A stretch of 64,000 bases of DNA from Klebsiella phage NU-KP11, in the sequence record OR644643.1. One strand, 5' to 3'. A model generated the notes under the pieces. It ran no database searches and was not told the origin of the DNA. It saw nothing but the letters and a program-made list of their open reading frames with translations. A program made the translations under genes and the position numbers. The stretch's first letter is position 1, and every line of letters begins with the position of its first letter. Shown one piece after another: positions 1,619 through 45,710 of this stretch.

Positions 1619-2590
1619 ATGAGCAGCATTTTTAAACGTCAAGATCCCGCTAAACTCCAGGCACAGGTAGCAAATCTGAAAGGTGGTTCCGGCTTCCAGA
1701 AAGATGAGAAAGAATGGAAACTGACCCTGGACGCACAGAAAAACGGTTCCGCCGTTATTCGATTCCTCCCAGCACGTTCCGATGATGAACTGGCGTTCGT
1801 CCGTATCGTGAGCCACTCTTTCAAGAAAAACAACCAGTGGTATATTGAGAACTGTTCCTCTACCCACGGCGATTATGACGGCTGTCCTGCATGTAAGTAC
1901 ATTTCCGAAAACGATCTGTATGAGAAGGCTAAAGCCAACAAAAACGGGCCAGAAGATAAGCTACTGAGCCAGATCGGTCGTAAACAAAGTTTCTGGGCTA
2001 ACGTCCTGATCGTTAAAGACCCAGGCGCTCCAGAAAACGAAGGTAAGGTGTTCAAATACCGCTTCGGTAAGAAAATCATGGACAAGATCACCGCCGCAAT
2101 TAACGGTAATCCAGAACTTGATGAACCGGGTATTGCTGTAACCTGTCCGTTTGATGGTGCTAACTTCACCCTGAAAGCGAAAAAAGTTGGTGATTGGCCT
2201 AACTATGACGATAGCTCGTTTGGTGTTCCGGCTAAGATCAAAAACATCGACGATGAAGAAGTTCAGAAAGCAATTTTCGAAGGTATGAGCGATCTTCGCC
2301 CAATCACTGCCGAAAGCGAATTCAAACCGCTGGCTGACCTGACTACTCGCTTCAATAAAGTTATGGGTAGTTCGATTGGTTCTGCTGGTTCCAGCGCTTC
2401 CGCTGACCTTGATAGCGAACTGAGCAACTTCGATAACGAAATGGCTAAGTTTGACAATCAGACATCTGATGTGAAATCATCTGGTGGTGTTGCATCGGTT
2501 CCGGTAGGCGAAGATGACGGCGTACCGTTCGACCTGGATGATTCTGATAGCTCCGGTGATGACGACCTGGATAAACTGTTAGACATGTAA
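1619..2590 (+). CDS. 32: single-stranded DNA-binding protein gp32
   Basis: 323 aa. EWKLTLDAQKNGSAVIRFLPA, YIENCSSTHGDYD, KDPGAPENEGKVFKYRFGKKI and an acidic Ser/Asp-rich C-tail match T4 gp32. Confidence 0.95.
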   Translation: MSSIFKRQDPAKLQAQVANLKGGSGFQKDEKEWKLTLDAQKNGSAVIRFLPARSDDELAFVRIVSHSFKKNNQWYIENCSSTHGDYDGCPACKYISENDLYEKAKANKNGPEDKLLSQIGRKQSFWANVLIVKDPGAPENEGKVFKYRFGKKIMDKITAAINGNPELDEPGIAVTCPFDGANFTLKAKKVGDWPNYDDSSFGVPAKIKNIDDEEVQKAIFEGMSDLRPITAESEFKPLADLTTRFNKVMGSSIGSAGSSASADLDSELSNFDNEMAKFDNQTSDVKSSGGVASVPVGEDDGVPFDLDDSDSSGDDDLDKLLDM

Positions 2591-2595
2591 TACAA

Positions 2596-2616
2596 GCGGG
2601 GGCTTCGGCCCCCACT
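2596..2616 (+). terminator. UUCG-tetraloop GC hairpin after gene 32
   Basis: gcgggggcttcggcccccac directly after the stop; weak U-tract. Confidence 0.45.
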
Positions 2617-2645
2617 CAAAGAATTCTAAGTTAGAGAAGAAATAT

Positions 2646-2915
2646 ATGAATGAAAGTAATGTTTTTGTTGACTACATGAACCGCGTCCGTAAATCTTGGG
2701 TTGCTAAACTCTCGGACGAAACAAAAGAACTGTTTAAAGCTATGCCTCAAGAGGAACGTTTTAAACACTATCGTGACATTGATGAAAAAGTGGTTGCGGA
2801 ACATCGTAAACTTACCAGCGAACGCCGCGAAGATCCGAAGCGTACAACCGTTAAAGAAATGGCTGATATGCTTGACACAGCAGCGGAAACCGTTGTAAAA
2901 TCACTTATTAAGTAA
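2646..2915 (+). CDS. hypothetical protein (89 aa) between genes 32 and 45
   Basis: ORF with an RBS-like gagaagaaatat upstream. No recognisable family. Confidence 0.5.
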   Translation: MNESNVFVDYMNRVRKSWVAKLSDETKELFKAMPQEERFKHYRDIDEKVVAEHRKLTSERREDPKRTTVKEMADMLDTAAETVVKSLIK

Positions 2916-2941
2916 CACTTATTGAAAACTAAAGGCTGAAT

Positions 2942-3607
2942 ATGAAATTCTCTAAACAAACTATTGATATCCTGAAAAACTTTTCTCAAATCAACTCTTC
3001 GATCATGCTGACCAAAGGTTCATTCATCATGACGAAATCAATCAACAGCGTTGTATACGCAGAAGCTGAAATTGCTGATGTGATTGATGAAGATGTTGGT
3101 ATCTACGATCTCAACTCATTCCTGAACATGCTGAACATCGTCGGCACTGACGCGGAAATCACTCATGATATTTCCACTGGTGAAATCGTGATTCGCGGCG
3201 ACAAGATGAAGATCATCGAACGTTCAGCAGACGCAACAACGATCCCGAAACCGAAAAAACGTCTGGTGATGCCAGTAGCAGATCTGATTTTCCAGATTAC
3301 CGCTAACGATTTCGAAAAACTGATCAAAGCGTCTCGCATGATGAAACTGACCGACCTGTCCGTTGAACCGATTGATGGTAAACTGGTCATCACCGCGAAA
3401 AGCAAAGAAAGTCAATCAACTTTCTCCGTTGAAGTCGGTGAGTATGAAGGCGACAATGTTTTCAATTTCGATATGAAGATTGATAACATGCAGTTCATCA
3501 ACAGCGATTACAAAGTAGAGATTTCCTCCAAAGGGGCTGCAAAATTCTCTTCTGATAACGGCGTTGCTTACGTCGTTGTACTTGAAGCAAGTAGCACATT
3601 CAAGTAA
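2942..3607 (+). CDS. 45: sliding clamp gp45
   Basis: 221 aa. MKFSKQTIDILKNFSQINSSIML, DVGIYDLNSFL, GEYEGDNVFNF and KGAAKFSSDNG...VVVLEASS match T4 gp45. Confidence 0.93.
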   Translation: MKFSKQTIDILKNFSQINSSIMLTKGSFIMTKSINSVVYAEAEIADVIDEDVGIYDLNSFLNMLNIVGTDAEITHDISTGEIVIRGDKMKIIERSADATTIPKPKKRLVMPVADLIFQITANDFEKLIKASRMMKLTDLSVEPIDGKLVITAKSKESQSTFSVEVGEYEGDNVFNFDMKIDNMQFINSDYKVEISSKGAAKFSSDNGVAYVVVLEASSTFK

Positions 3608-34531: not shown

Positions 34532-35179
34532 TCACCTCGCTCGACCTAAAATGCGCGCGGCCTGTCCACATATGATGTTTAGCTTCATATCTGGTATATC
34601 AGGCCGCTTTGCATACCATTCCATCAAAACCGATCCAGAATAGTAGTTATCAAGATTAAAATAAGGGCAACTAAAAGTATAAGCTACTGGCACAAAATCA
34701 CGTGTCGGTAGGTAGGAACTTGCTTTAGTGGATGAATAATACAAGCCATTTATATGATTCGTGTATTCTTCGGATGTTTTATCGATCGGATAACCGCCGA
34801 GGTTTTTAGGATCGATCTGGGATGGTAATTTTCCCTGATATTCTACAATGTCAACAAAATAGTTTATATTCTTTGGTCTGAATGCCAATACCGCTGAAAA
34901 ATCCGCGTTGGAAGTAAGATGAACTATGCTCAACTGTTCCAACGCGGATTGATTAAACTTTTCTGTTCTTTCCATTTCGATAGCCCTTGTATCGACTACA
35001 AGGGCACCTTTTATCATCGGGAATATATCAGTCCATTTGTACCAAGTTACTACCATAAGAAACATAACCATTATTAGAATTATTTTTATCAGCAATTGTT
35101 TCCATGTTTTCACACCCATCACAAACGAGATTACCCGATCAAATAAGGCTAGTTTATCTACGGGATTTCTCTCAGCCAT
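34532..35179 (-). CDS. t: holin t
   Basis: 215 aa. N-terminal TM segment, then ALEQLSIVHLTSNADFSAVLAFRPKNINYFVDIVEYQGKLPS...LGGYPIDKT...CPYFNLDN...ICGQAARILGRAR, collinear with T4 holin T. Confidence 0.92.
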   Translation of the reverse strand: MAERNPVDKLALFDRVISFVMGVKTWKQLLIKIILIMVMFLMVVTWYKWTDIFPMIKGALVVDTRAIEMERTEKFNQSALEQLSIVHLTSNADFSAVLAFRPKNINYFVDIVEYQGKLPSQIDPKNLGGYPIDKTSEEYTNHINGLYYSSTKASSYLPTRDFVPVAYTFSCPYFNLDNYYSGSVLMEWYAKRPDIPDMKLNIICGQAARILGRAR

Positions 35180-35230
35180 TTTATAAGACTCTTCTTAGGT
35201 TACTATACGTATATTTAGGATACAACAAAA

Positions 35231-35253
35231 AAGGCTACCTGTATGGTAGCCTT
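35231..35253 (-). terminator. rho-independent terminator after gene 38
   Basis: Minus strand reads aaggctaccatacaggtagcctttttt. Confidence 0.65.
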
Positions 35254-35258
35254 TAAAA

Positions 35259-35786
35259 TTATATCTCAGTAATGATCCCAGAAATGGTTACACCTACGTT
35301 ACCATTAAGAAAACCATACCAATCTTTACTCATCGCGTCATAGTTTCTGAATCCATCACGCATATAACTTGATATCCTGAAATCAAAAGTCCATTGTTGA
35401 TTGTTATCTACACGGGTAAACAAAATGCGTACATTTCGATTTGGCCCGTCATAGATTGTTAAGTTAGAATAGTTTTCTGCTGAATCGCCGATAGCGCCAA
35501 TAGTACCAATCTGCTTACCATTATAATCACCAACGATAGTATAAGCAGAGTCAGAAATGTTGTACCATACACCAGTATCAGCACCCTTACGCCAAACACC
35601 ACGCCAACGAGTGTTGTTATACCAACGTTCCTGGGGAACAAAAGTAAAATGCCATTTGCTACGCCCAATTAATTGAGACATATAAAATGGTGTTCCAAGT
35701 CGAACTACGGCAGCAGCTTGAATCATGGATCGTTGTCCAGTTTCATTAACCGCCGAACTTCCAACTAGTGGGCCGGAAATAGCCAT
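35259..35786 (-). CDS. 38: gp38 tail-fibre tip adhesin, T2-type N-terminal gp37-attachment domain with divergent C-terminal domain
   Basis: 175 aa. N-terminus MAISGPLVGSSAVNETGQRSMIQAAAVVRLGTPFYMSQLIGRS matches T2-type gp38 (MAVVG.PGWIG.SAVNETGQRWMSQAA...RLG.P..MSQ.AGRS). The C-terminal 130 aa lack the Gly-rich motifs. Position 37-38-t as in T-even phages. RBS ggaggttaactaatg. Confidence 0.75.
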   Translation of the reverse strand: MAISGPLVGSSAVNETGQRSMIQAAAVVRLGTPFYMSQLIGRSKWHFTFVPQERWYNNTRWRGVWRKGADTGVWYNISDSAYTIVGDYNGKQIGTIGAIGDSAENYSNLTIYDGPNRNVRILFTRVDNNQQWTFDFRISSYMRDGFRNYDAMSKDWYGFLNGNVGVTISGIITEI

Positions 35787-35802
35787 TAGTTAACCTCCGA
35801 AA

Positions 35803-35819
35803 AGGGGCCGAAGCCCCTT
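35803..35819 (-). terminator. hairpin between genes 37 and 38 (attenuator-like)
   Basis: aaggggcttcggcccctt on the minus strand, directly upstream of the gp38 RBS. Confidence 0.45.
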
Positions 35820-38800
35820 AATTAAGTTTTCTTTCAAGTTCATTAACTTTAGCAGTTAACTTGTTGACCTGATCTACCAGAACCGCAACAATCGCATTAT
35901 AGTTCAAGCGAATATGTTCAGGATCTGAATCATCAACAGCAGTAGGAAGGCTTTCCTGAACTTCCTGAGCAATAAGCCCCGTTGATTTAGTCCATGCGTC
36001 ATCTGCTGTAGGATCTCGAACTTCGTAATGATAAGCTGACATTTTGCTCAAAATTTCTTCGGAGCTTTCAACTTTAGTGATATTACGTTTATGTCGTTTA
36101 TCGGAAGTTATATAAACATCCTGTGCGTACAACGTACCGTTACACGACATATCACCATTATTACGGAATTCGAACCAACCGTTACTGTTAGCCCCAAACA
36201 CATGAAGCATATGGAAATGACGTTCGCCTACACGTTCAACAAATATATTCTCAGAACCGAGGTCGGTTCCTTGCATAAGATGTCTTACGCCACGAACTTC
36301 ACGAACCCAGCGGTTTCCTGCGTTGGCATCCTGATACGCGCGTGTACCTGCGCAATCAATAGAACCTTTGTTGTAGAAGTTAGCTTTGTTCCTGTCTTCG
36401 TTGTTTTCGCCAGTACCACCGTTGTTAACACCAACGTTCAGTTCGCCTTGCTGAATGATAAAGTAGTTACCAGTGTTCCATATAACGTTTTTACCGTTTA
36501 TATTACTAAACCCGATATTACCAGCAGCATCAGCAAACAAAATACCACGATTTGTATTACCGTCCGTATGCCTAAAGTTAATAGACGCCCAGGCGTTATT
36601 ATCACTCGTTGGCTGAATAATCGGAGAACCTTTAACACGAAGACCTGTTGTCAGTTCCGCATGGTTTGCTCGAAACATTCCATTTGTATGAAATTCAAAC
36701 CATCCAGTATTATCTCCTGCTGTTGATTGTAATCCAATGAATGCGCTATTTCCTACACGTTCTGTAAATCGCAGAGTTCCTAAATTAGAACCAGCACCAA
36801 ACATCGTAATGCCGTCGGTTTCGTTGACAGTAACAGAACCTTCTGTATACGTCCTGATCCCCCGTTTCTCGATTGGCCCTACATTATTAACCGTTAATGT
36901 GTTGTTTAATGTAGTAGCACCAGAAACAGTTAACGTACCAGTAGCAGACATATTTCCGTTTGCACTGATATTACCATTAACTATCATGTTACCACTAGAA
37001 TCAATCCTTGTTTCGTTTGTGCTGGATGTATCTCCTTGAGGACGTAGATAAATCGTTTGTCCAGCTTTAGCAGAAATAATCAACGCACCGCCGTTATTAG
37101 CCCTGATTTTAGCCCCTTGTGCATACTCGATCGCGGTATCACCACCACTTCCAGCGGTAGCAGTTACTTTGATCAAGTTGTTGGTTTGAGTTGGGCCACC
37201 AGGACGCAATTCAACAGCACGACCACCACCAGAACTACCAATAATCACGCGACCATCAGTACTTTCTAACAGAGCACTACCACTACCGATCACAACACCT
37301 TTATCAGTGTACTTCGTGGAAGAAGCACCACCTAACCCTAAGTTGCCACCTACGCGAGCGTTGTTAGCAACAATCAGATCATTTCCGCTGTTCAGGTTTC
37401 CTGTAGTCGTGGTAACAGATTTAAATGATACATCGTCATCGTTTCCGCTAATGACGTTCATTCTCCACGGTGTCCATGCTTTAGCAGTACCGCTAACAGT
37501 GAACCAACGTTCCCAACTGCGTTTATTGTCCGATGCGCGTAATACTTGACGGTTAGTGTAATCTGTATCGCTTACTTTACGGAGACATTCAACAATAACA
37601 ATAAAGTTACCACCGACGCCAGAAGGTTTATTGGTGATGTTATCACCGCCACCCATACTACGGCACGAATAAACTTTAACAGTACCCGGTTCGGTATAGT
37701 TCAATGTTAAAGCATCAAGATCCTGAGTTACCCCAGTCAAATCATACGCAGCAACAGGGCCAGTAAATCCACCAGTTGAATTAACCACACCAGCAACGTT
37801 AATATCACGCCCGAAGTTAACTACCCATCTGTTTATTGTATCCGAAGACAACAGCCATGCGTTTTGTGTCTGGTTTTCTGCTTCACCGTAACGAATATCA
37901 CCGTTTACATCAATACCCAAACGTTTCATGTTCATACCGGAAAGTTTGAACCCGATAGACAAGTTCGAGTTAGTCGGTCTATTCAGTAACAGCGGAGTGT
38001 GCTGCGAACCACTAATAGAAACGGTTTGTTCGGTTGTAGTTGAACTTGTGTTATTAAAGTTCGCATAGGATGTATTAACAGTTCGACCGTTAAATGCACC
38101 ATATGTGATGTTAATATTACCCGGTGATGTAAATGTACCGTCAGATTTAAAAGAGAATTCTCCACCTGTCGTTCCACCACTCGTTCTGGCACGAATGCGA
38201 ACTTCACCAGAAGAGGCAGTGTTAGGCAACGCCCACACAGCACCACTTTCAACCCCTTTATACTTAAACCAAATTACGGAGTTTCCGCTCTCAGCATTCA
38301 AATGAAAACCAGGTGATGTTTTCGAGATCGTTAGATCACCAGACATCGTATCACCAACACGTGCAACAGCCCCTACGTCATCAGGAGTCGGTTTAAATGC
38401 AGTACCGTACAGTTCCTGGAAGTTGATTCTTCCTGTATCTGAGTTTAAGTTAGCATCATTAGTTGCACCAACTTTAACGCGACCAGTATTCCAATCAACT
38501 GAGATCACCGCATGAACATCTGATACAGAACTATAAAAACTTGCGCCCATACCATAGTTAATTTCAGTACCAAGCGTATTTCGCATGAACTGAGAACCAT
38601 CAGTACGCAGTTGTTTCAGATAGTCGCGAGCGTTAGAAACGGTGTATGATGTACCCTTACCGCCTAAACCGTAAGCACCAACAAGCATTACTTGTCCGGA
38701 ACCTGTACCAACATCACGGGTTGCAGCAGTACCCAAACCTAAGTTTGTGCGAGCAGCAGCCGCTGTACTTGCGCCTGTACCACCTTTAGCAACAGACAGA

Positions 38801-40020
38801 ATACCATCAGTACCATCGTCAAGGTTAGGTTTGTTCATTTCGTCATAGATACGAATAACCGTACTCTCAACTAACCCTTCCGGAGCAGTTGCAGAGATTG
38901 TGTAACCAGTAGGCAGATAATATTCAGTAGCAGCACCGCCAGCGATAGACAGCAGAGCAACTTTAACACCACCAATGAATGCGCGTTGAGTAAACCACAG
39001 TTCTAAACCTTCGGAGGTACGAACCAGGCTATAACGCATCTGGTTAGTATAATCAATTGCAGTATCTCCTAAACGTCGAACTTGCAGGTAAGAACGAACG
39101 TTACCGCTTGTTAATGTCGATGGAATGCTTCGAGCGCTACAATCGATAAAGTCAATAGAACTGCGCGTATTGCCATAGTTACCGCCGTTAGTCACCATCA
39201 GTTGCAAGCGACTCTGACCTGAGCCAGGATCTTTTAACAGAGCAACTTTAATCCAACGAGTTTCGTTACCTGTAGTTACAGGGAAATTATCTTGCTCAAG
39301 TTGACGCGCGTTTTCAACCCGCCCGATCCCCAGTTCGGTTAAAGTCGGTTTACGACCGTCCCAGTATACAGGTTTTGCTTGAAACAGCAATTCACCGCCA
39401 TCAGTGATCGTTAACTGATTTGTTGCACCGCCAGCCGTGTTACGCATATAGATATCAGCACCACCAGCGCCGAAATATGCTTTGTTTTTTGAAATAAAAG
39501 CAGAACCACCACCGCCCATAGCTTCATCAATATAGATGTTACCTGGTACGCGAGTGTTACCACCGGAATCAATAAGTTTCAGAGTACGGCGAACAGTATC
39601 ACCAGAACCACGGGAAACGAAACGGATCTCTTCATCACCGTCATCAATTGTACCGATTTCTAAAAACCCTTTATTACTCTCACCACCAGAACCAATGTAC
39701 CAACCATCGTTAAGAGCGTTTCTACCAGTGATATGACGAACCACACCCCCGCTCAAATCCGCGTTGCTGAAAGTAATAGTTTTACCTTCCGCTACGGTAA
39801 CGGTATCATTAAGAGCACTAGGCCCATCAACTGTTAATTTTTTGGTATTTGTTTCTGGGATACCTTTACCCGCTAACTGAACGATCGAAGAACCATTTTT
39901 CGTGTAAATGGCATAATCAGCCATGTTGATCGCCAGTTCACCATCTGCAAGCTGACTTGTAGTAGGTGTTTTCCCCGCAACTGTGCTACGTAGGAATTGA
40001 ATTTTTGCTAAATCAGCCAT
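35818..40020 (-). CDS. 37: long tail fibre distal subunit gp37 with C-terminal intramolecular chaperone (peptidase S74) domain
   Basis: 1400 aa. The N-terminus MADLAKIQFLRSTVAGKTPTTSQLADGELAIN matches T4 gp37. The C-terminus ...TSDKRHKRNITKVESSEEILSKMSAYHYEVRDP...TGLIAQEVQESLPTAV...LNYNAIVAVLVDQVNKLTAKVNELE is a typical S74 autoproteolytic chaperone module. Confidence 0.88.
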   Translation of the reverse strand: MADLAKIQFLRSTVAGKTPTTSQLADGELAINMADYAIYTKNGSSIVQLAGKGIPETNTKKLTVDGPSALNDTVTVAEGKTITFSNADLSGGVVRHITGRNALNDGWYIGSGGESNKGFLEIGTIDDGDEEIRFVSRGSGDTVRRTLKLIDSGGNTRVPGNIYIDEAMGGGGSAFISKNKAYFGAGGADIYMRNTAGGATNQLTITDGGELLFQAKPVYWDGRKPTLTELGIGRVENARQLEQDNFPVTTGNETRWIKVALLKDPGSGQSRLQLMVTNGGNYGNTRSSIDFIDCSARSIPSTLTSGNVRSYLQVRRLGDTAIDYTNQMRYSLVRTSEGLELWFTQRAFIGGVKVALLSIAGGAATEYYLPTGYTISATAPEGLVESTVIRIYDEMNKPNLDDGTDGILSVAKGGTGASTAAAARTNLGLGTAATRDVGTGSGQVMLVGAYGLGGKGTSYTVSNARDYLKQLRTDGSQFMRNTLGTEINYGMGASFYSSVSDVHAVISVDWNTGRVKVGATNDANLNSDTGRINFQELYGTAFKPTPDDVGAVARVGDTMSGDLTISKTSPGFHLNAESGNSVIWFKYKGVESGAVWALPNTASSGEVRIRARTSGGTTGGEFSFKSDGTFTSPGNINITYGAFNGRTVNTSYANFNNTSSTTTEQTVSISGSQHTPLLLNRPTNSNLSIGFKLSGMNMKRLGIDVNGDIRYGEAENQTQNAWLLSSDTINRWVVNFGRDINVAGVVNSTGGFTGPVAAYDLTGVTQDLDALTLNYTEPGTVKVYSCRSMGGGDNITNKPSGVGGNFIVIVECLRKVSDTDYTNRQVLRASDNKRSWERWFTVSGTAKAWTPWRMNVISGNDDDVSFKSVTTTTGNLNSGNDLIVANNARVGGNLGLGGASSTKYTDKGVVIGSGSALLESTDGRVIIGSSGGGRAVELRPGGPTQTNNLIKVTATAGSGGDTAIEYAQGAKIRANNGGALIISAKAGQTIYLRPQGDTSSTNETRIDSSGNMIVNGNISANGNMSATGTLTVSGATTLNNTLTVNNVGPIEKRGIRTYTEGSVTVNETDGITMFGAGSNLGTLRFTERVGNSAFIGLQSTAGDNTGWFEFHTNGMFRANHAELTTGLRVKGSPIIQPTSDNNAWASINFRHTDGNTNRGILFADAAGNIGFSNINGKNVIWNTGNYFIIQQGELNVGVNNGGTGENNEDRNKANFYNKGSIDCAGTRAYQDANAGNRWVREVRGVRHLMQGTDLGSENIFVERVGERHFHMLHVFGANSNGWFEFRNNGDMSCNGTLYAQDVYITSDKRHKRNITKVESSEEILSKMSAYHYEVRDPTADDAWTKSTGLIAQEVQESLPTAVDDSDPEHIRLNYNAIVAVLVDQVNKLTAKVNELERKLN

Positions 40021-40028
40021 GTTTCACC

Positions 40029-40697
40029 TTAATAAGATCCAAAATCTATGATAGTCCCTTTAGTAATTACCTGGTCGAGCCGTGGTACGTGTTCGGGACG
40101 GGAAGCCGCGCCTGTGCTCGCGAATTGCGGGGCAGTTAATAGCCCTGTCATTGTATCGCCAGCGCGTAATACCCTGCTATTAGCATTTGTTGTGACAGTA
40201 TTTATCTGTCCATCAACATAACTTTTTCGTGTTGCATGACTTGCGTCAGTAGGGTTAGCGGTTGTAATACTGATTTGTTTTTCAACCGTAATATTACCCT
40301 GAGTGTTTAAATCACCATTTCGAGCGTTGATGACTAATACGCGACCATTAGTACCGGAAGATGAACGAATACCAATACCATACCATGATACAAGATCCAT
40401 GTTAGCTTTTGATAATGTCGCGCCATCACCATCACCAGAATATAAACCGTTCTGGTCACTTCCGCCTGTGAAAGTAGCGTTAATTTGTAGCCCCTGTTTA
40501 AAGGCAACTACACCCAAATATTGACCACCGCTTGCTTTAGAAACGAAGTCGTTATTTGATGCTTGTGGTTTATCGTTTTCAGTATAAACCTTATATCCGC
40601 GATAGGTTAGAGTATTACCAACCGGAACCAGCGGAAATGTGCCGGAGTGCCAAATAGGTAAACCCCCGACTGTAGAACCAGCTTTTAAATCTGCCAT
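40029..40697 (-). CDS. 36: long tail fibre distal connector gp36
   Basis: 222 aa. MADLKAGSTVGG.IWH.G.FPL, DGATLSKANMDLVSWYGIG, INARNGD.NT.G and NANSRVLR.GDTMTG.LTAP.F match T4 gp36. Confidence 0.9.
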   Translation of the reverse strand: MADLKAGSTVGGLPIWHSGTFPLVPVGNTLTYRGYKVYTENDKPQASNNDFVSKASGGQYLGVVAFKQGLQINATFTGGSDQNGLYSGDGDGATLSKANMDLVSWYGIGIRSSSGTNGRVLVINARNGDLNTQGNITVEKQISITTANPTDASHATRKSYVDGQINTVTTNANSRVLRAGDTMTGLLTAPQFASTGAASRPEHVPRLDQVITKGTIIDFGSY

Positions 40698-40714: not shown

Positions 40715-40744
40715 TATTTATAAGGCCCGATGATCCGGGCCTTT
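40715..40744 (-). promoter_or_regulatory. terminator hairpin plus T4-type late promoter TATAAATA upstream of gene 36
   Basis: Minus strand reads aaggcccggatcatcgggccTTATAAATAtg. Confidence 0.55.
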
Positions 40745-40746
40745 GT

Positions 40747-41871
40747 TTATGCATCAACTTCACGGAATTCGGAAGCAGAATAATCGCCACCAGGATAAAC
40801 CTTAGTATTCGGCAATTCAAATATATACGGTGTTCCACCATCGATCATGTTGTTCATTCTGATACCGTTAACCCCAAACTGTGCAGCAAAGTTTTGATCA
40901 GCTTCGACAGCAGATACCTGAACCATCACGAAGTTACGGATCGCAGATAAACTATCCGTAGCGGGTTTAGGATAACGAGATACAGCAACGTTAAATCCAT
41001 CACAACCACTGGGGATCGTATAGAACTGTTCAAATCGTAACCACTCATCAGGTTTATTTGCAGGAACTTCAATCACCGATGATGAAGTTTGAGCAGTACC
41101 CGTAAACCATCGAACAGTAACCCTTGTTGTTGATCCAGCATCCAATAATTCTTTACTGGCGTAAAAATCACCAGTAATCATCATAGCCAATCCAGGAGCC
41201 ATACCATAATCAGCTAGTTTAGAGATCACTGGGTTTGCAACAGGATACACTTTATATTCAGATCCATTGGTTGAATTGTATTCTTCCGTATCTTCAACAG
41301 ATCGGAAAGGTACACCAGTTCGACCAACATCACCAACGTTATCATAGACAAGATCGATTGATGCGCGTGAATCTTCTTTTAAAATTCCATCGTTCGCGTA
41401 AAACGATTCAATCAGTATACGAGATTTTGCGGCCCCATACAATGCAACATATGCAGAATTTGGGAATCTCTGAGCGAAATCAGCGCCTTGCCACATAACG
41501 GATCTGTTTTTAGCAAACCAATCATCAACGATTTGGCTTGTTTTGTATTCACCGTTAGTCATTATCAAATACAGCCCAGAAGTTTGAGCATCCATATATT
41601 CAACAAACGCTTTGTTTGCAGTTGCTGAATTATCATTCGATAATGTGAAGGTTTTAATTGGATCAACTATAGCATTGTTAATTCTCCATACGTTGATCCC
41701 AACACTAGGCGGTGTCCCTACCGCCTTTTGATTTAGTGTAAACTCATACTGATTAGGAACCGCATTGGGATGTGTTGCCTTTGCGGTTATTCTGTAAGTT
41801 ACGCTGTTTGTTTCCGATAGAATTTGCGTTTCTACAAAATCGGGGCCGAACCCCGCCATTAAGTTTGACAT
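40747..41871 (-). CDS. 35: long tail fibre hinge gp35
   Basis: About 374 aa between 34 and 36. ATG at 41871 overlaps the gp34 stop; the track start 41883 is GTG. Confidence 0.7.
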   Translation of the reverse strand: MSNLMAGFGPDFVETQILSETNSVTYRITAKATHPNAVPNQYEFTLNQKAVGTPPSVGINVWRINNAIVDPIKTFTLSNDNSATANKAFVEYMDAQTSGLYLIMTNGEYKTSQIVDDWFAKNRSVMWQGADFAQRFPNSAYVALYGAAKSRILIESFYANDGILKEDSRASIDLVYDNVGDVGRTGVPFRSVEDTEEYNSTNGSEYKVYPVANPVISKLADYGMAPGLAMMITGDFYASKELLDAGSTTRVTVRWFTGTAQTSSSVIEVPANKPDEWLRFEQFYTIPSGCDGFNVAVSRYPKPATDSLSAIRNFVMVQVSAVEADQNFAAQFGVNGIRMNNMIDGGTPYIFELPNTKVYPGGDYSASEFREVDA

Positions 41872-44800
41872 TATGCCACCCACTCAAATTTAACTGTCTG
41901 AGTAACCGGATCTGGGTAAATCTTAACATTACCAACTTTGATCCAATCGGTAACAGTCATGTTTTTAACCGTAGTACCAACAGCAGACGTTGCACCAATC
42001 TCGCCAGCAGTAGGCGGGTTGTTGCTGGTATACATGCGGCCCCACTCATCAAATTTACCCGTGATTGGGTTCATTTGACGGATCCAGAAGGATTGCGCCA
42101 GCGCATTAACACCAGTACCAGAGGTCGGACGAGGTGCCCAAATCTGATAAGTGAATGCAGTTCCGTTACCAAACTGCGTTAAAGTACCAGGTGCTTTAAC
42201 ATAGGTATAACGGGTTACAATCATGATATCCGGATTAATCGGGTCTGGTTCAAGAACCGGAACCGCATAACCAGGAAGCAAGTTGTACTGTGCCGATGCA
42301 GTGATCTCCGCCGTCCAGTTACCCCTAGATGCTTCTGTTACTGCATCCAGCGTTGACCAAGCCGCTTGACCTGCGATGATAATTGAACTGTTGTTTACCG
42401 TCAACCGTCCAGACATCGTATCACCTGCTTTACGTACATACGTAGGATTCAGCAAGGTTTGCGCGTTCTTCTCAGTAAAGACTTTATAAGAGTTCGCAGA
42501 TTCTTCCGCTACGATGTTGCCAGCATCAGAAGTCAGGATCTTAGTTGTCTTATTTTTAGTACCCATAGAGAGAACAGAACCAGCAGCCGTGATCACTGTA
42601 TCATTACCCAGCGTCACTTTGCTAATCGCCTGAATTTCAGGAGCCTGGAATTTAACGTTAGCTACAACGCCGCGAGTATCATTATACACAGAAAGATGAA
42701 CTGTGCTAGTGTTACCCGTTGAGATCATTGCAATACGCCCAGAGGCTGAACTTGCTTGAATTGACCAGTCGTTAGATGAACCACCATTCAAACGAAGTTT
42801 ACCCATCGATGAACCATCACCAACGTTCAGATCTCCACTAACATTCATTACCCGGAAACTTGCGTCGGCTGTTGAATTAATGTCAGCCTGTACAGTGGTT
42901 GCTTTCGTTAGAGTCAATGCCCCGTTAACCGTCTGATTAACATCACGACGAATGAACTGGGAAGAATCCAGGTTATCCAGCTTATCAGCATCAACCGCTT
43001 TAGCCCCGATCGGCAGATAGTGTTTCAGTGTTAAGTTCAGTTCATACGGAGAAACAGCAACACCTACAGCGGCATAACCATCATCCGGAAGAGTAGAACC
43101 AGCCACATCATTACCCGACCAAGTACCAAGCCCCTTAGACAGCTTCACAGTACCACGTACCAGATCGGTAGCTTGCCATGAAGTATCAACCTGAATTGTA
43201 TTTTTCAAGTTCTTAGGAGAAACAGCCTTGTTTGCAACGGTGCCAGCAGTAGTTTCAGTAGCCGTAGCCACCTGAATGATACCTTCTGCGCTCTCAGTCG
43301 CTTTCTTAGCGTGTAACTTCTTAGGGGTGACAAATACTGTATCTAATGTCCCTGCGTTCGTCTCAGACTGTGTAGCGACGCGTAAAGTACCACGTTGAGT
43401 TTCAGTTGCTGATTGAATACCGATGTTAACCGTAGTCCAGATAGTCCCAGATTGAGTTAACCCGTCAGCAGTAGCAACAGTAATATGGCTTGTATCGTCC
43501 AGATAACCTTTCAGTTTAGACGGTACGATCGCTTTATTCGTTACAGTACCTGCTGATACTTCGGCAGTGGTTGCAATTGCAATGATACCTGTCAGCGTTT
43601 CTGTTGCAGCACGATCGTTAAGCGTTTTAGGCGTTACCGCTCGCGTATAATCAGTCCCTGCGTTGGTTTCTGTCTGAGTAGCAATCTCGATCAAACCAAT
43701 ACGACCATCAGTAGAGGTTTTCTTGTGCAGCATTTCCGGAGTAACTACGGTCGGGATGTTTGCACTTGCAACAGTACCGTTAATAACTTCGGTTTCAGAA
43801 GCCAGCCATACAGCACCGGATTGTAACTGAGTCGCTTTATACTCACGAAGAGTTTTAGGCGTTACCGCTTTCTGATAATCTGAATGGTCATAAACCCCAG
43901 TACCAGCCTGAGCACGATCCGTGTTAGTGTTAGGAGCACCACCAGTAGCAACAAGGGCAAGGATACCAGTTAAGGTCGGCGATGCAATACGGTTATGCAA
44001 CTTTTTCGGGGTTACAATCGTAATATCATCGGTGCTTCCGTTTGTTTCTGCCTGAGTTGCGATTTCTGCCAATCCACGACGGGTTTCAGTCGCTGTTCTT
44101 TCGTTCAGCTTCTTAGGGGTAACAATCACATCATCCAGATAGCTATCGGTTGAAAGTTTGTTAACCTCGGCAGTTGTTGCTAACCGTGCAATACCACGAC
44201 GGGTTTCTGTAGCAGTTTTATTTGCTAACGTCATCGGAGTAATAGCAGTTTCGTCGTTCGGGTTATCTTCTAGGTTTTTGTTTACTTCTGCCTGTGCAGC
44301 CAGAGCAATAACACCAGTACGCGATCTGTTAGTTGCGTCAACACGTTCAACGATCGGACGATAATTAGCAACAACCCATTCTTTCGTAGCTTTCAGGTAA
44401 GAAAACTCGATATACGGGAGGTAATCACTAGCAGCATTAAATGCTAATGAAGTTACGCTAAACCAATCATCGGGCGGATAGTCTTTGCGCTGCGGGAACT
44501 GCATCATATTTTTGTTGGTGCGGATCTTGTCCGTTGTACCATCTTTAACTTTGATTGTACAGTTCTGGTTCTTACCCATCATATAAAGGGATACGTAAAC
44601 GCGATCACCATCAGCAACATCAGTTGGAAGGGTAACTGTAACGTTTGGTATAGTCCCAGAAGGGTTTGCAGTAACAAAAACGTAATCGTTAGGAACCGCG
44701 TTTAAATCACTGTAGATACGACGCAGACGAACACGGTTGTCAGCATCATATACTTTCCATTGGCTATTCTGTGCATCAAAGATGAACATACCAAAGCCGG

Positions 44801-45644
44801 ATTTCTGGCTAGTTACAGAAGTAACACCAGTACTTGCGCCGTCAGAAATAGTGTGTCCACTACCTGGATAAATCTGCAAAACGGCTACGTTGATAGAGTT
44901 CATTTTATCAGCGTCATAGGTTGTGATCACATCACCATCATTTGCATATTTCGGCAACTGGAGAGTGATTTTACCTGTAGCACTGTTACGGAAAACTGTC
45001 ATGCCAGATTGTAACTGGAATGAACCTGTTCCGGTTGCGTTCACGATCTCAGAATCGCGGTTATCCAGAGTTTCAGCAACACGCCATACGTTACCGTTAT
45101 AGATAAACGTTGCGATCATGTACGGGTGGGTCAGTCGATACTGTGCCGATTGTACAGTACGTAAACGGATCTGACGGGTGTTAGACTTAACAAGGATACT
45201 GTTCACACCTACTAAACCACCACAATCTTTAAACGTGATTACGTCGCCCTCTGTCGGGTTGTCCGGCAGCAGGTACAGAAGTTCAGTAAAGCGTCCATCA
45301 GCCATAATGTAACTACCAGATTCAATAATGCTACCATCTGGAGTGGTTACGTTACTATAAACCCATTTCGGGTCATTACGAGTTGCGATCCATTTGGATT
45401 CGTCGAAAGCCCCAGCAGGGGAAGCAATATTCTGTTTTGCGTACCAGATACGACGCGCATAAATGATCGCCATGTCTTGAGAATAACCACGGGTCGGGTC
45501 ATACTGCTGGATTCCGTTAAATTCATTGAAAAAGTCAACGTTAACGCCGTCACTCAGCGTATTACGATCAGCCTTCCCAACGTTGATAACTTTTTCACCA
45601 GCAGCATCAAGGCCACTTCGTGCGCGGAATGATTTAGCTACCAT
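41871..45644 (-). CDS. 34: long tail fibre proximal subunit gp34
   Basis: About 1257 aa. MVAKSFRARSGLDAAGEKVINV...QQYDPTRGY and C-terminal IGATSAVGTTVKNMTVTDWIKVGNVKIYPDPVTQTVKFEWVA match T4 gp34 (ends ...IVPDPVNKTVKFEWVE). Repeated TATETRRG blocks as in T4. The track start 45689 is TTG, so the ATG at 45644 is used. Late promoter TATAAATA 33 nt upstream. Confidence 0.9.
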   Translation of the reverse strand: MVAKSFRARSGLDAAGEKVINVGKADRNTLSDGVNVDFFNEFNGIQQYDPTRGYSQDMAIIYARRIWYAKQNIASPAGAFDESKWIATRNDPKWVYSNVTTPDGSIIESGSYIMADGRFTELLYLLPDNPTEGDVITFKDCGGLVGVNSILVKSNTRQIRLRTVQSAQYRLTHPYMIATFIYNGNVWRVAETLDNRDSEIVNATGTGSFQLQSGMTVFRNSATGKITLQLPKYANDGDVITTYDADKMNSINVAVLQIYPGSGHTISDGASTGVTSVTSQKSGFGMFIFDAQNSQWKVYDADNRVRLRRIYSDLNAVPNDYVFVTANPSGTIPNVTVTLPTDVADGDRVYVSLYMMGKNQNCTIKVKDGTTDKIRTNKNMMQFPQRKDYPPDDWFSVTSLAFNAASDYLPYIEFSYLKATKEWVVANYRPIVERVDATNRSRTGVIALAAQAEVNKNLEDNPNDETAITPMTLANKTATETRRGIARLATTAEVNKLSTDSYLDDVIVTPKKLNERTATETRRGLAEIATQAETNGSTDDITIVTPKKLHNRIASPTLTGILALVATGGAPNTNTDRAQAGTGVYDHSDYQKAVTPKTLREYKATQLQSGAVWLASETEVINGTVASANIPTVVTPEMLHKKTSTDGRIGLIEIATQTETNAGTDYTRAVTPKTLNDRAATETLTGIIAIATTAEVSAGTVTNKAIVPSKLKGYLDDTSHITVATADGLTQSGTIWTTVNIGIQSATETQRGTLRVATQSETNAGTLDTVFVTPKKLHAKKATESAEGIIQVATATETTAGTVANKAVSPKNLKNTIQVDTSWQATDLVRGTVKLSKGLGTWSGNDVAGSTLPDDGYAAVGVAVSPYELNLTLKHYLPIGAKAVDADKLDNLDSSQFIRRDVNQTVNGALTLTKATTVQADINSTADASFRVMNVSGDLNVGDGSSMGKLRLNGGSSNDWSIQASSASGRIAMISTGNTSTVHLSVYNDTRGVVANVKFQAPEIQAISKVTLGNDTVITAAGSVLSMGTKNKTTKILTSDAGNIVAEESANSYKVFTEKNAQTLLNPTYVRKAGDTMSGRLTVNNSSIIIAGQAAWSTLDAVTEASRGNWTAEITASAQYNLLPGYAVPVLEPDPINPDIMIVTRYTYVKAPGTLTQFGNGTAFTYQIWAPRPTSGTGVNALAQSFWIRQMNPITGKFDEWGRMYTSNNPPTAGEIGATSAVGTTVKNMTVTDWIKVGNVKIYPDPVTQTVKFEWVA

Positions 45645-45676
45645 TATCTTTTTTCCTATATTGTATTCAATACCAA

Positions 45677-45710
45677 TATTTATATACAAAAAATGGCCCG
45701 AAGGCCATTT
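45677..45710 (-). promoter_or_regulatory. terminator hairpin plus late promoter TATAAATA upstream of gene 34
   Basis: Minus strand reads aaatggccttcgggccattttttgTATATAAATAttgg, about 33 nt before the gp34 ATG. Confidence 0.6.

Follow-up and report, generated by a model that had tools for sequence, protein, structure and literature searches.

Here, we analysed the distal long-tail-fibre genes gp37 and gp38 of Klebsiella phage NU-KP11 in a stretch of 64,000 nucleotides from record OR644643.1 (hereafter the window). We consider it very probable that the locus encodes the distal half of the long tail fibre of the genus Slopekvirus with a tip of canonical build, in which gp38 serves as the adhesin. 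The direct basis consists of the assigned domains, the catalytic motif of gp37, which is intact, the gene order, the boundaries of an exchangeable cassette and a gp37 tip that co-varies with the N-terminal domain of gp38. Both genes lie on the minus strand and together fill positions 35,259 to 40,020 exactly, as stated in an initial annotation of the window.

An S74 chaperone at the end of gp37

As had been predicted, gp37 (1400 residues) ends in a peptidase S74 intramolecular chaperone. A profile search placed Pfam Peptidase_S74 (PF13884) on residues 1306-1362 with E = 2e-10 and 41.2 bits, above the curated cut-off of 22, and 57 of 58 profile positions were covered. The Ser/Lys motif SDxxxK is intact in DVYIT^SDKRHK (putative dyad S1306/K1311) and aligns column by column with the gp37 site of phage S16 (TSDKRHKR over SSDRRIKK), DLNVS^SDRRIKK, which is described as experimentally cleaved in PMC7917993. 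Since the cleavage motif lies at S1306, the domain comprises the last 95 residues at the extreme C-terminus (1306-1400) and not the last 110, as the initial annotation had it. In a five-way alignment of gp37 from the window, phiEap-3, KP15, AR1 and S16, the motifs SDxRxK, GLIAQEV and RLNYN are invariant, and the chain end VDQVNKLTAKVNELERKLN falls on the helix of S16. Among phages with the window-type tip the domain is 96-100% conserved. By analogy, we predict that it is cut off between T1305 and S1306, with S1306 acting as nucleophile and K1311 as base.

But, is such a domain out of place in a T-even gp37? The initial annotation had held that the S74 domain is known from other fibres and spikes but not from gp37 of T-even phages, and had taken the locus for a mosaic. 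Read as an unusual and recent mosaic, the locus would have received its chaperone by a graft from an endosialidase tailspike or from the L-shaped fibre of T5, while the T4-like gp37 retained a T2-type gp38 as its partner. GenBank labels of gp37 ('L-shaped tail fiber protein' or 'chaperone of endosialidase') would fit such an origin, as would the lack of S74 in T4 gp37 itself (PMC3157838, PMC9569957). However, the top solved-structure match of the last 288 residues of gp37 is S16 gp37 (6F45_A, E = 5.6e-14), the PDB matches of the C-terminus at E <= 1 include neither a T5 fibre nor an endosialidase chain, and the domain shares 38% identity with the gp37 chaperone domain of Tequatrovirus AR1; an origin from T5 or endosialidase was rejected on the structural matches. 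The same pair of genes was moreover found in other phages: AR1 combines a gp37 ending in S74 (E = 1.1e-12) with a T2-type gp38 carrying Gp38_N and PF05268 (E = 4.9e-73), and KP15, another Slopekvirus, combines S74 (E = 1e-15) with a 175-residue Gp38_N protein. We surveyed 24 IMG/VR loci fetched via a Gp38_N motif. In 20 of them, the neighbouring gp37 bears SDxxxK at a distance of 94-112 residues from the C-terminus; in two further loci, an additional gp38-like gene separates such a gp37 from the Gp38_N gene (22/24 in total). The remaining two have their gp38-like gene at another genomic site. In the phage collection, a gp38 homologue occurs in 799 records and a homologue of the chaperone domain in 776.

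The literature agrees with the survey and describes the pairing of an S74-type gp37 with a gp38 adhesin as the majority state in T-even-like phages (PMC7917993, PMC9569957, PMC3157838). In S16, according to PMC7917993 (citing Dunne 2018), the last 113 residues of gp37 autocleave after trimerisation and thereby bare the docking surface for gp38; for T2 and T6, processing of the gp37 C-terminus and subsequent capping by gp38 go back to Drexler et al. 1986, as cited in PMC3157838. In T4, gp37 uses a C-terminal extension of its own as adhesin, which is folded by T4 gp38, a non-structural chaperone unrelated to adhesin-type gp38 (PMC3157838, PMC9569957). S74-gp37 with a gp38 adhesin is canonical in T2, T6, S16, RB49 and RB43, and the mosaic interpretation failed because T4 had been taken as the norm although it is the exception. 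We thus give next to no credit to a recent graft. The arrangement has been known since 1986, and near-identical genes are deposited in GenBank and RefSeq as tail fibre adhesin.

Some T4-like contigs from IMG/VR depart from the simple pair. Locus L006 (~2330-3513) carries two short-type gp38-like genes (182 and 172 residues) in tandem after S74-gp37, and L022 (~2160-3510) a T2-type polyglycine gp38 (264 residues) followed by a short-type gp38 (170 residues); such tandem products could be alternative adhesins competing for one fibre tip. In contigs resembling Yersinia phage fHe-Yen9-01, the Gp38_N gene lies away from gp37 (L021:3001-3870, 289 residues; L027:3001-3117, 38 residues, truncated) and follows an open reading frame of 347 residues, which we read as primase/Toprim-like from its sequence alone.

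A short RB43-type gp38 and the proposed tip

The first ~45 residues of gp38 match the docking domain of adhesins, in line with the initial annotation: Gp38_N (PF21721) covers residues 1-40 with E = 2.4e-20 and 72.7 bits (cut-off 25). S16 gp38 (6F45_D) was matched with phmmer at E = 5.6e-5, and phrog_1121 'tail fiber adhesin' covers the full length (E = 3e-46). Neither these matches nor those of gp37 are attributable to chance. The label 'T2-type' held for the 44 N-terminal residues, which are shared with T2, but not for the C-terminal domain, which is of RB43 type. The glycine-rich specificity domain of T2 and S16 (PF05268) gave no match in gp38 even at E <= 0.1, and with 175 residues and no polyglycine runs the protein differs from T2/T6/S16-type gp38 of ~250-260 residues; hence, it is not T2-type. 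Instead, it shares 34.4% identity with RB43 gp38 over 99% of the query length, and the C-terminal domains alone share 31% (E = 6e-12). Judged by its sequence, gp38 is a short RB43-type adhesin (~170-180 residues, Gp38_N plus an RB43-like C-terminal domain).

RB43 gp38 was described by Trojet et al. 2011 (PMC3157838) as a protein of 174 residues, whose first ~50 residues resemble T6 gp38 while its C-terminus is unrelated. Every host-range mutant of RB42/RB43 in that study altered Q100 in the C-terminal domain, and RB43-GVA requires the lipopolysaccharide (LPS) core plus OmpF (PMC3157838); the host of RB43 is Escherichia coli. Like the window, RB43 encodes gp38 downstream of S74-gp37 (DVYIR^SDIRLK), and the gp38 proteins of RB43, RB42 and RB16 share its layout (174-175 residues, the first ~45-50 of them T6/T2-like, followed by a homologous C-terminal domain of ~120-130 residues); overall, however, they are only about 35-38% identical to the window protein, and RB43 retains the docking tryptophans discussed below. 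Q100 of RB43 aligns with G100 of the window, which falls into a lower-confidence loop of our model between strands 91-99 and 107-112. The specificity domain is modelled as a compact beta-sandwich, and we predict the receptor loop around residues 100-106. We also expect the locus to determine host range, as had been suggested initially.

A search of a word-indexed protein collection with the single gp38 sequence retrieved five close relatives and was too shallow, so it was repeated with a seven-sequence alignment. The 103 matches revealed short Gp38_N-only proteins (150-185 residues) as a large family; an exhaustive HMMER search of 1.84 billion representatives returned 31 matches and no further kind of relative. 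Many short Gp38_N proteins (~170 residues) stem from Salmonella or E. coli assemblies with contigs of up to 5.9 Mb (P0018, P0022, P0066, P0067, P0085) and could be due to contamination with phage, to carrier states or to gp38-like adhesins encoded by prophages.

Our account of the fibre tip draws on PMC7917993, PMC9569957, PMC3157838 and bioRxiv 10.64898/2026.05.12.724579. We propose that gp37 trimerises and that its 95-residue chaperone nucleates folding of the trimeric fibre. The chaperone would then cut itself off through the S1306/K1311 dyad and leave a flat trimeric tip ending in ...DVYIT, on which one gp38 monomer would dock through its 44-residue N-terminal attachment domain. Specificity would reside in the 130-residue RB43-type beta-sandwich of gp38, probably for an outer-membrane protein and/or the LPS core. 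The earlier suggestion that gp38 docks on a gp37 end exposed by self-cleavage is right as an idea and matches the established mechanism.

S16 (PDB 6F45; Dunne et al. 2018 via PMC7917993) resembles the window in its S74 domain with SDxRxK, in a homologous gp38 N-terminal domain and in the gene order gp36-gp37-gp38-holin, and its gp37 and gp38 chains are the best solved-structure matches of the window proteins. As described in PMC7917993, cleavage in S16 bares the trimeric tip and a monomeric gp38 docks; by homology, the same is expected here. Differences concern S16 gp38, which according to the same source has 249 residues and a polyglycine-rich C-terminal domain with hypervariable loops, as is typical of T2/S16-type adhesins, while the window has 175 residues and an unrelated beta-sandwich, and the gp37 residues directly preceding the cleavage site, which are unrelated between the two. 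T2 and T6, represented by AR1 in our comparison, likewise remove the gp37 C-terminus and cap the fibre with gp38, but T2-type gp38 carries the glycine-rich PF05268 domain that the window protein lacks. T4 shares the gp37 N-terminus, the logic of the shaft and the operon order, and differs in its gp37 extension acting as adhesin, in the lack of S74 and in its unrelated non-structural gp38 (PMC3157838, PMC9569957).

Several observations weigh against the proposed tip. Our literature search found no experimental Slopekvirus data on gp37 cleavage, gp38 in virions or the receptor, also when extended to pR7_1, phiEap-3, KMI7 and PSKm2DI; cleavage, virion gp38 and receptor therefore rest on homology, as does the 3:1 stoichiometry of gp37 to gp38. 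The P1 residue of the cleavage site is Thr, while the other surveyed loci have Arg or Ser there. The gp38 proteins of the window and of phiEap-3 carry L7, S20 and Y35 in place of three tryptophans of the attachment domain. Finally, bioRxiv 10.64898/2026.05.12.724579 assumes, without giving evidence, that the Slopekvirus gp37 tip binds OmpC as in T4.

The unusual Thr and the missing cleavage data would also fit a degenerate S74 domain, a non-cleaving remnant that stays on the fibre. Against such a remnant stand the intact Ser/Lys dyad, the presence of all conserved motifs and the strong conservation among window-type phages; a retained domain would, in addition, block the surface to which Gp38_N binds in S16. 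We assign this alternative very little probability. The assumption of gp37-OmpC binding would be compatible with gp38 acting only as a non-structural assembly chaperone like T4 gp38, with the gp37 tip itself binding the receptor, and several GenBank records indeed name gp38 'distal long tail fiber assembly catalyst'. However, what marks a T4-type assembly chaperone was not found at this locus: gp38 carries the adhesin attachment domain Gp38_N and is homologous over its full length to RB43 gp38, in which mutations of the C-terminal domain alter host range. RefSeq names the orthologues of phiEap-3 and KP15 'tail fiber adhesin'. Moreover, gp37 already has a built-in chaperone, and a C-terminal adhesin extension in the manner of T4 does not fit a gp37 ending in S74. 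A mere chaperone role of gp38 thus appears highly unlikely. The reading of direct gp37-OmpC binding does not fit either, because gp37 ends in S74 and is followed by a gp38 adhesin gene, and in this respect the gene content argues against the assumption made for Slopekvirus in bioRxiv 10.64898/2026.05.12.724579.

Docking residues and exchange of the tip cassette

Returning to the canonical tip with gp38 as adhesin, how would the two proteins fit together? The conserved tryptophans of the attachment domain are described as prongs entering pockets of gp37 (PMC7917993, citing the S16 structure). In 41 attachment-domain sequences we found W7 in 38, W20 in 37 and W35 in 25, where it is the most frequent residue; the tryptophans (W7, W20 and W35/36 in the aligned sequences) are thus a feature of most members and not a formal defining criterion. 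S16 has W7, W20 and W36, so that the docking chemistry of the window, in which all three are replaced, may differ from that of S16. Within the subtype with S20 and Y35, position 7 is L, W or N. In Klebsiella phage Metamorpho (Jiaodavirus), a window-like gp38 C-terminal domain is joined to a KP15-like N-terminal domain (W, W, W), and the gp37 tip is KP15-like as well (NVEIR^SDRR); in loci L031 and L032, the window-like C-terminal domain is joined to an N-terminal domain of the S20/Y35 type and the gp37 tip reads DVYIT^SD. These pairings indicate that the gp38 N-terminal domain goes with the tip of gp37 rather than with the specificity domain. Judged from the compared sequences, the co-variation matches what lock-and-key docking predicts, and we infer a recombination joint near residue 45 of gp38.

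The predicted mature C-terminus of gp37, ...NGTLYAQDVYIT, would be the docking surface for gp38. The S20/Y35 subtype may not rely on tryptophan contacts, which is only a mildly new point. We tentatively raise the possibility, which we would sooner doubt than adopt, that the tip ...NGTLYAQDVYIT together with a gp38 N-terminal domain carrying L/W/N7, S20 and Y35 constitutes a distinct docking subtype that lacks the tryptophan-prong contacts of S16, T2 and KP15. If true, the subtype would be orthogonal to tips of the S16/T2/KP15 type, limit the exchange of adhesins among co-infecting T-even-like phages and offer a second, non-cross-reacting handle for the engineering of fibre tips.

The N-terminus of gp37 is T4-like, as the initial annotation had noted, with 55% identity over 42 residues to gp37 of Tequatrovirus AR1. 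Up to about residue 1000, gp37 is at least 84-100% identical per 50-residue block to the proteins of KP15, Roth22 and phiEap-3, and about 90-100% across the genus. Beyond ~1020, identity to KP15 drops to 12-48%, and beyond ~1080-1100, identity to Roth22 drops to 16-42%. Based on these drops, the last ~380 residues of gp37 plus gp38 are read as a recombination cassette, a minor new detail. The window-type module (gp37 from residue ~1050 to 1400 plus gp38) recurs with 92-98% identity in locus L032, whose gp37 shaft is only 16-66% identical to that of the window per 50-residue block and in which the holin gene is followed by asiA and then motA, the same order as in Metamorpho. The near-identical module, the divergent shaft and the Jiaodavirus-like gene order together point to exchange of the module between genera. 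As it also differs among Slopekvirus isolates, we regard the cassette as a host-range module. Near the mature gp37 tip, an HxH motif (RHFHMLH; window ~36200-36220, gp37 residues ~1267-1273) is aligned with HLHEG of AR1; it is reminiscent of the HxH motifs that bind metal in the needle of T4 gp37.

Within Slopekvirus, the tip occurs in at least three alleles. The window-type allele combines a gp37 ending in S74 with the 175-residue gp38 downstream. The KP15-type allele has the same layout, and its 175-residue gp38 is 35% identical to that of the window. In the Roth22/Helios-type allele, gp37 lacks S74 and is followed by a protein of 133 residues without Gp38_N. KP15, KP27 and Miro share genus and architecture with the window but carry a different allele of the cassette, and KP15 keeps W7, W20 and W35. 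PMC13611949 presents an AlphaFold3 model of the Miro gp37-gp38 complex as 'another variant of gp38' and, for Helios, describes a Mu-like tip that comes with a Tfa chaperone system. Roth22 gp37 (1297 residues; tip locus L003:2561-6902) is annotated as 'chaperone of endosialidase' despite the missing S74 domain.

The variability of the distal gp37 module (residues 1021-1305), which equals that of gp38 and travels with it, raises the question whether this module also binds LPS, capsule or O-antigen, so that the cassette would carry two specificities. Such two-site recognition is compatible with gp38 as adhesin, and RB43-GVA needs both the LPS core and OmpF (PMC3157838). However, a Pfam scan of gp37 detected no carbohydrate-binding or enzymatic domain, the variability may only reflect linkage to the docking tip, and in Metamorpho the gp38 C-terminal domain has moved without the gp37 module. 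We therefore regard a second binding site in gp37 as unlikely.

Gene context and significance

By megablast, the window belongs to Slopekvirus, a T4-like myovirus genus of Klebsiella and Enterobacter, with 128 matching phage records in all. The locus is 96.9% identical at the nucleotide level to Klebsiella phages pR7_1 and R4_1; the value is 93% for KMI7 and 92% for Enterobacter phage phiEap-3. The minus-strand order at 34.5-45.7 kb, gp34-gp35-gp36-gp37-gp38-holin t, is that of T4, and gp38 stands directly downstream of the chaperone-bearing gp37 and upstream of holin t, the context of an adhesin-type gene (Table 1).

Table 1 Features of the long-tail-fibre locus in the window.
Feature	Position	Strand	Basis or remark
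Second TATAAATA box	45677-45684		upstream of gp34
gp34	41871-45689	-	Pfam Gp34_2nd
gp35	40747-41883	-	phrog_1154
T4-type late promoter TATAAATA	40715-40722	-	exact match, upstream of gp36
gp36, distal hinge connector	40029-40697	-	Pfam Phage_T4_gp36, E = 5e-26
gp37, distal subunit of the long tail fibre, 1400 residues	35818-40020	-	open reading frame; phrog_10316 tail fibre protein, E = 0
gp37 residues 1-1020, genus-conserved shaft	36961-40020	-	84-100% identity per 50-residue block
gp37 residues 1-42, N-terminal gp36-attachment segment	39895-40020	-	part of the shaft
gp37 residues 1021-1305, variable distal module	36106-36960	-	identity drop against KP15 and Roth22
gp37 residues 1306-1400, S74 intramolecular chaperone with terminal coiled coil	35821-36105	-	Pfam PF13884
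GC-rich hairpin GGGGC-UUCG-GCCCC, then UUUU	35802-35819	-	read from the sequence; palindrome scan
gp38, 175 residues	35259-35786	-	open reading frame; Pfam Gp38_N; phrog_1121 'tail fiber adhesin'
gp38 residues 1-44, Gp38_N attachment domain docking on the gp37 tip (predicted)	35655-35786	-	
gp38 residues 45-175, RB43-type specificity domain	35262-35654	-	
gp38 predicted receptor loop, around residues 100-106	35469-35489	-	
Intrinsic terminator after gp38	35230-35254	-	strong; 10-bp stem, then T-run
Holin t, downstream limit of the locus	34532-35179	-	Pfam Phage_holin_T, E = 6.5e-53

The promoter box upstream of gp36 is likely to start the gp36-37-38 transcript, which its position suggests; two exact matches of TATAAATA in the window compare with ~4 expected, so the count is not above chance. 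The gp34 open reading frame as listed begins at a TTG (45689) and overlaps the second box; its true start is probably the ATG at 45644 (MVAKSF...). The hairpin with its UUCG tetraloop lies between the gp37 stop codon and the Shine-Dalgarno sequence of gp38, and in KP15 a terminator is annotated at this position. We speculate that the hairpin may attenuate read-through, lower the dosage of gp38 and help to set a 3:1 ratio of gp37 to gp38.

The locus offers no new mechanism, as S74 plus gp38 is the textbook design of T2, S16 and RB43. Its corrective value lies in the many GenBank records that mislabel the two genes, with public names as inconsistent as 'L-shaped tail fiber protein', 'distal long tail fiber assembly catalyst', 'chaperone of endosialidase', 'single-stranded DNA-binding protein' and 'tail fiber assembly protein U'. 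For Slopekvirus, a broad-host-range genus of interest for phage therapy of Klebsiella and Enterobacter, the locus represents the host-range cassette, and its boundaries (gp37 residue ~1020 to the end of gp38) together with the likely receptor loop (gp38 residues ~100-106) are useful for engineering.

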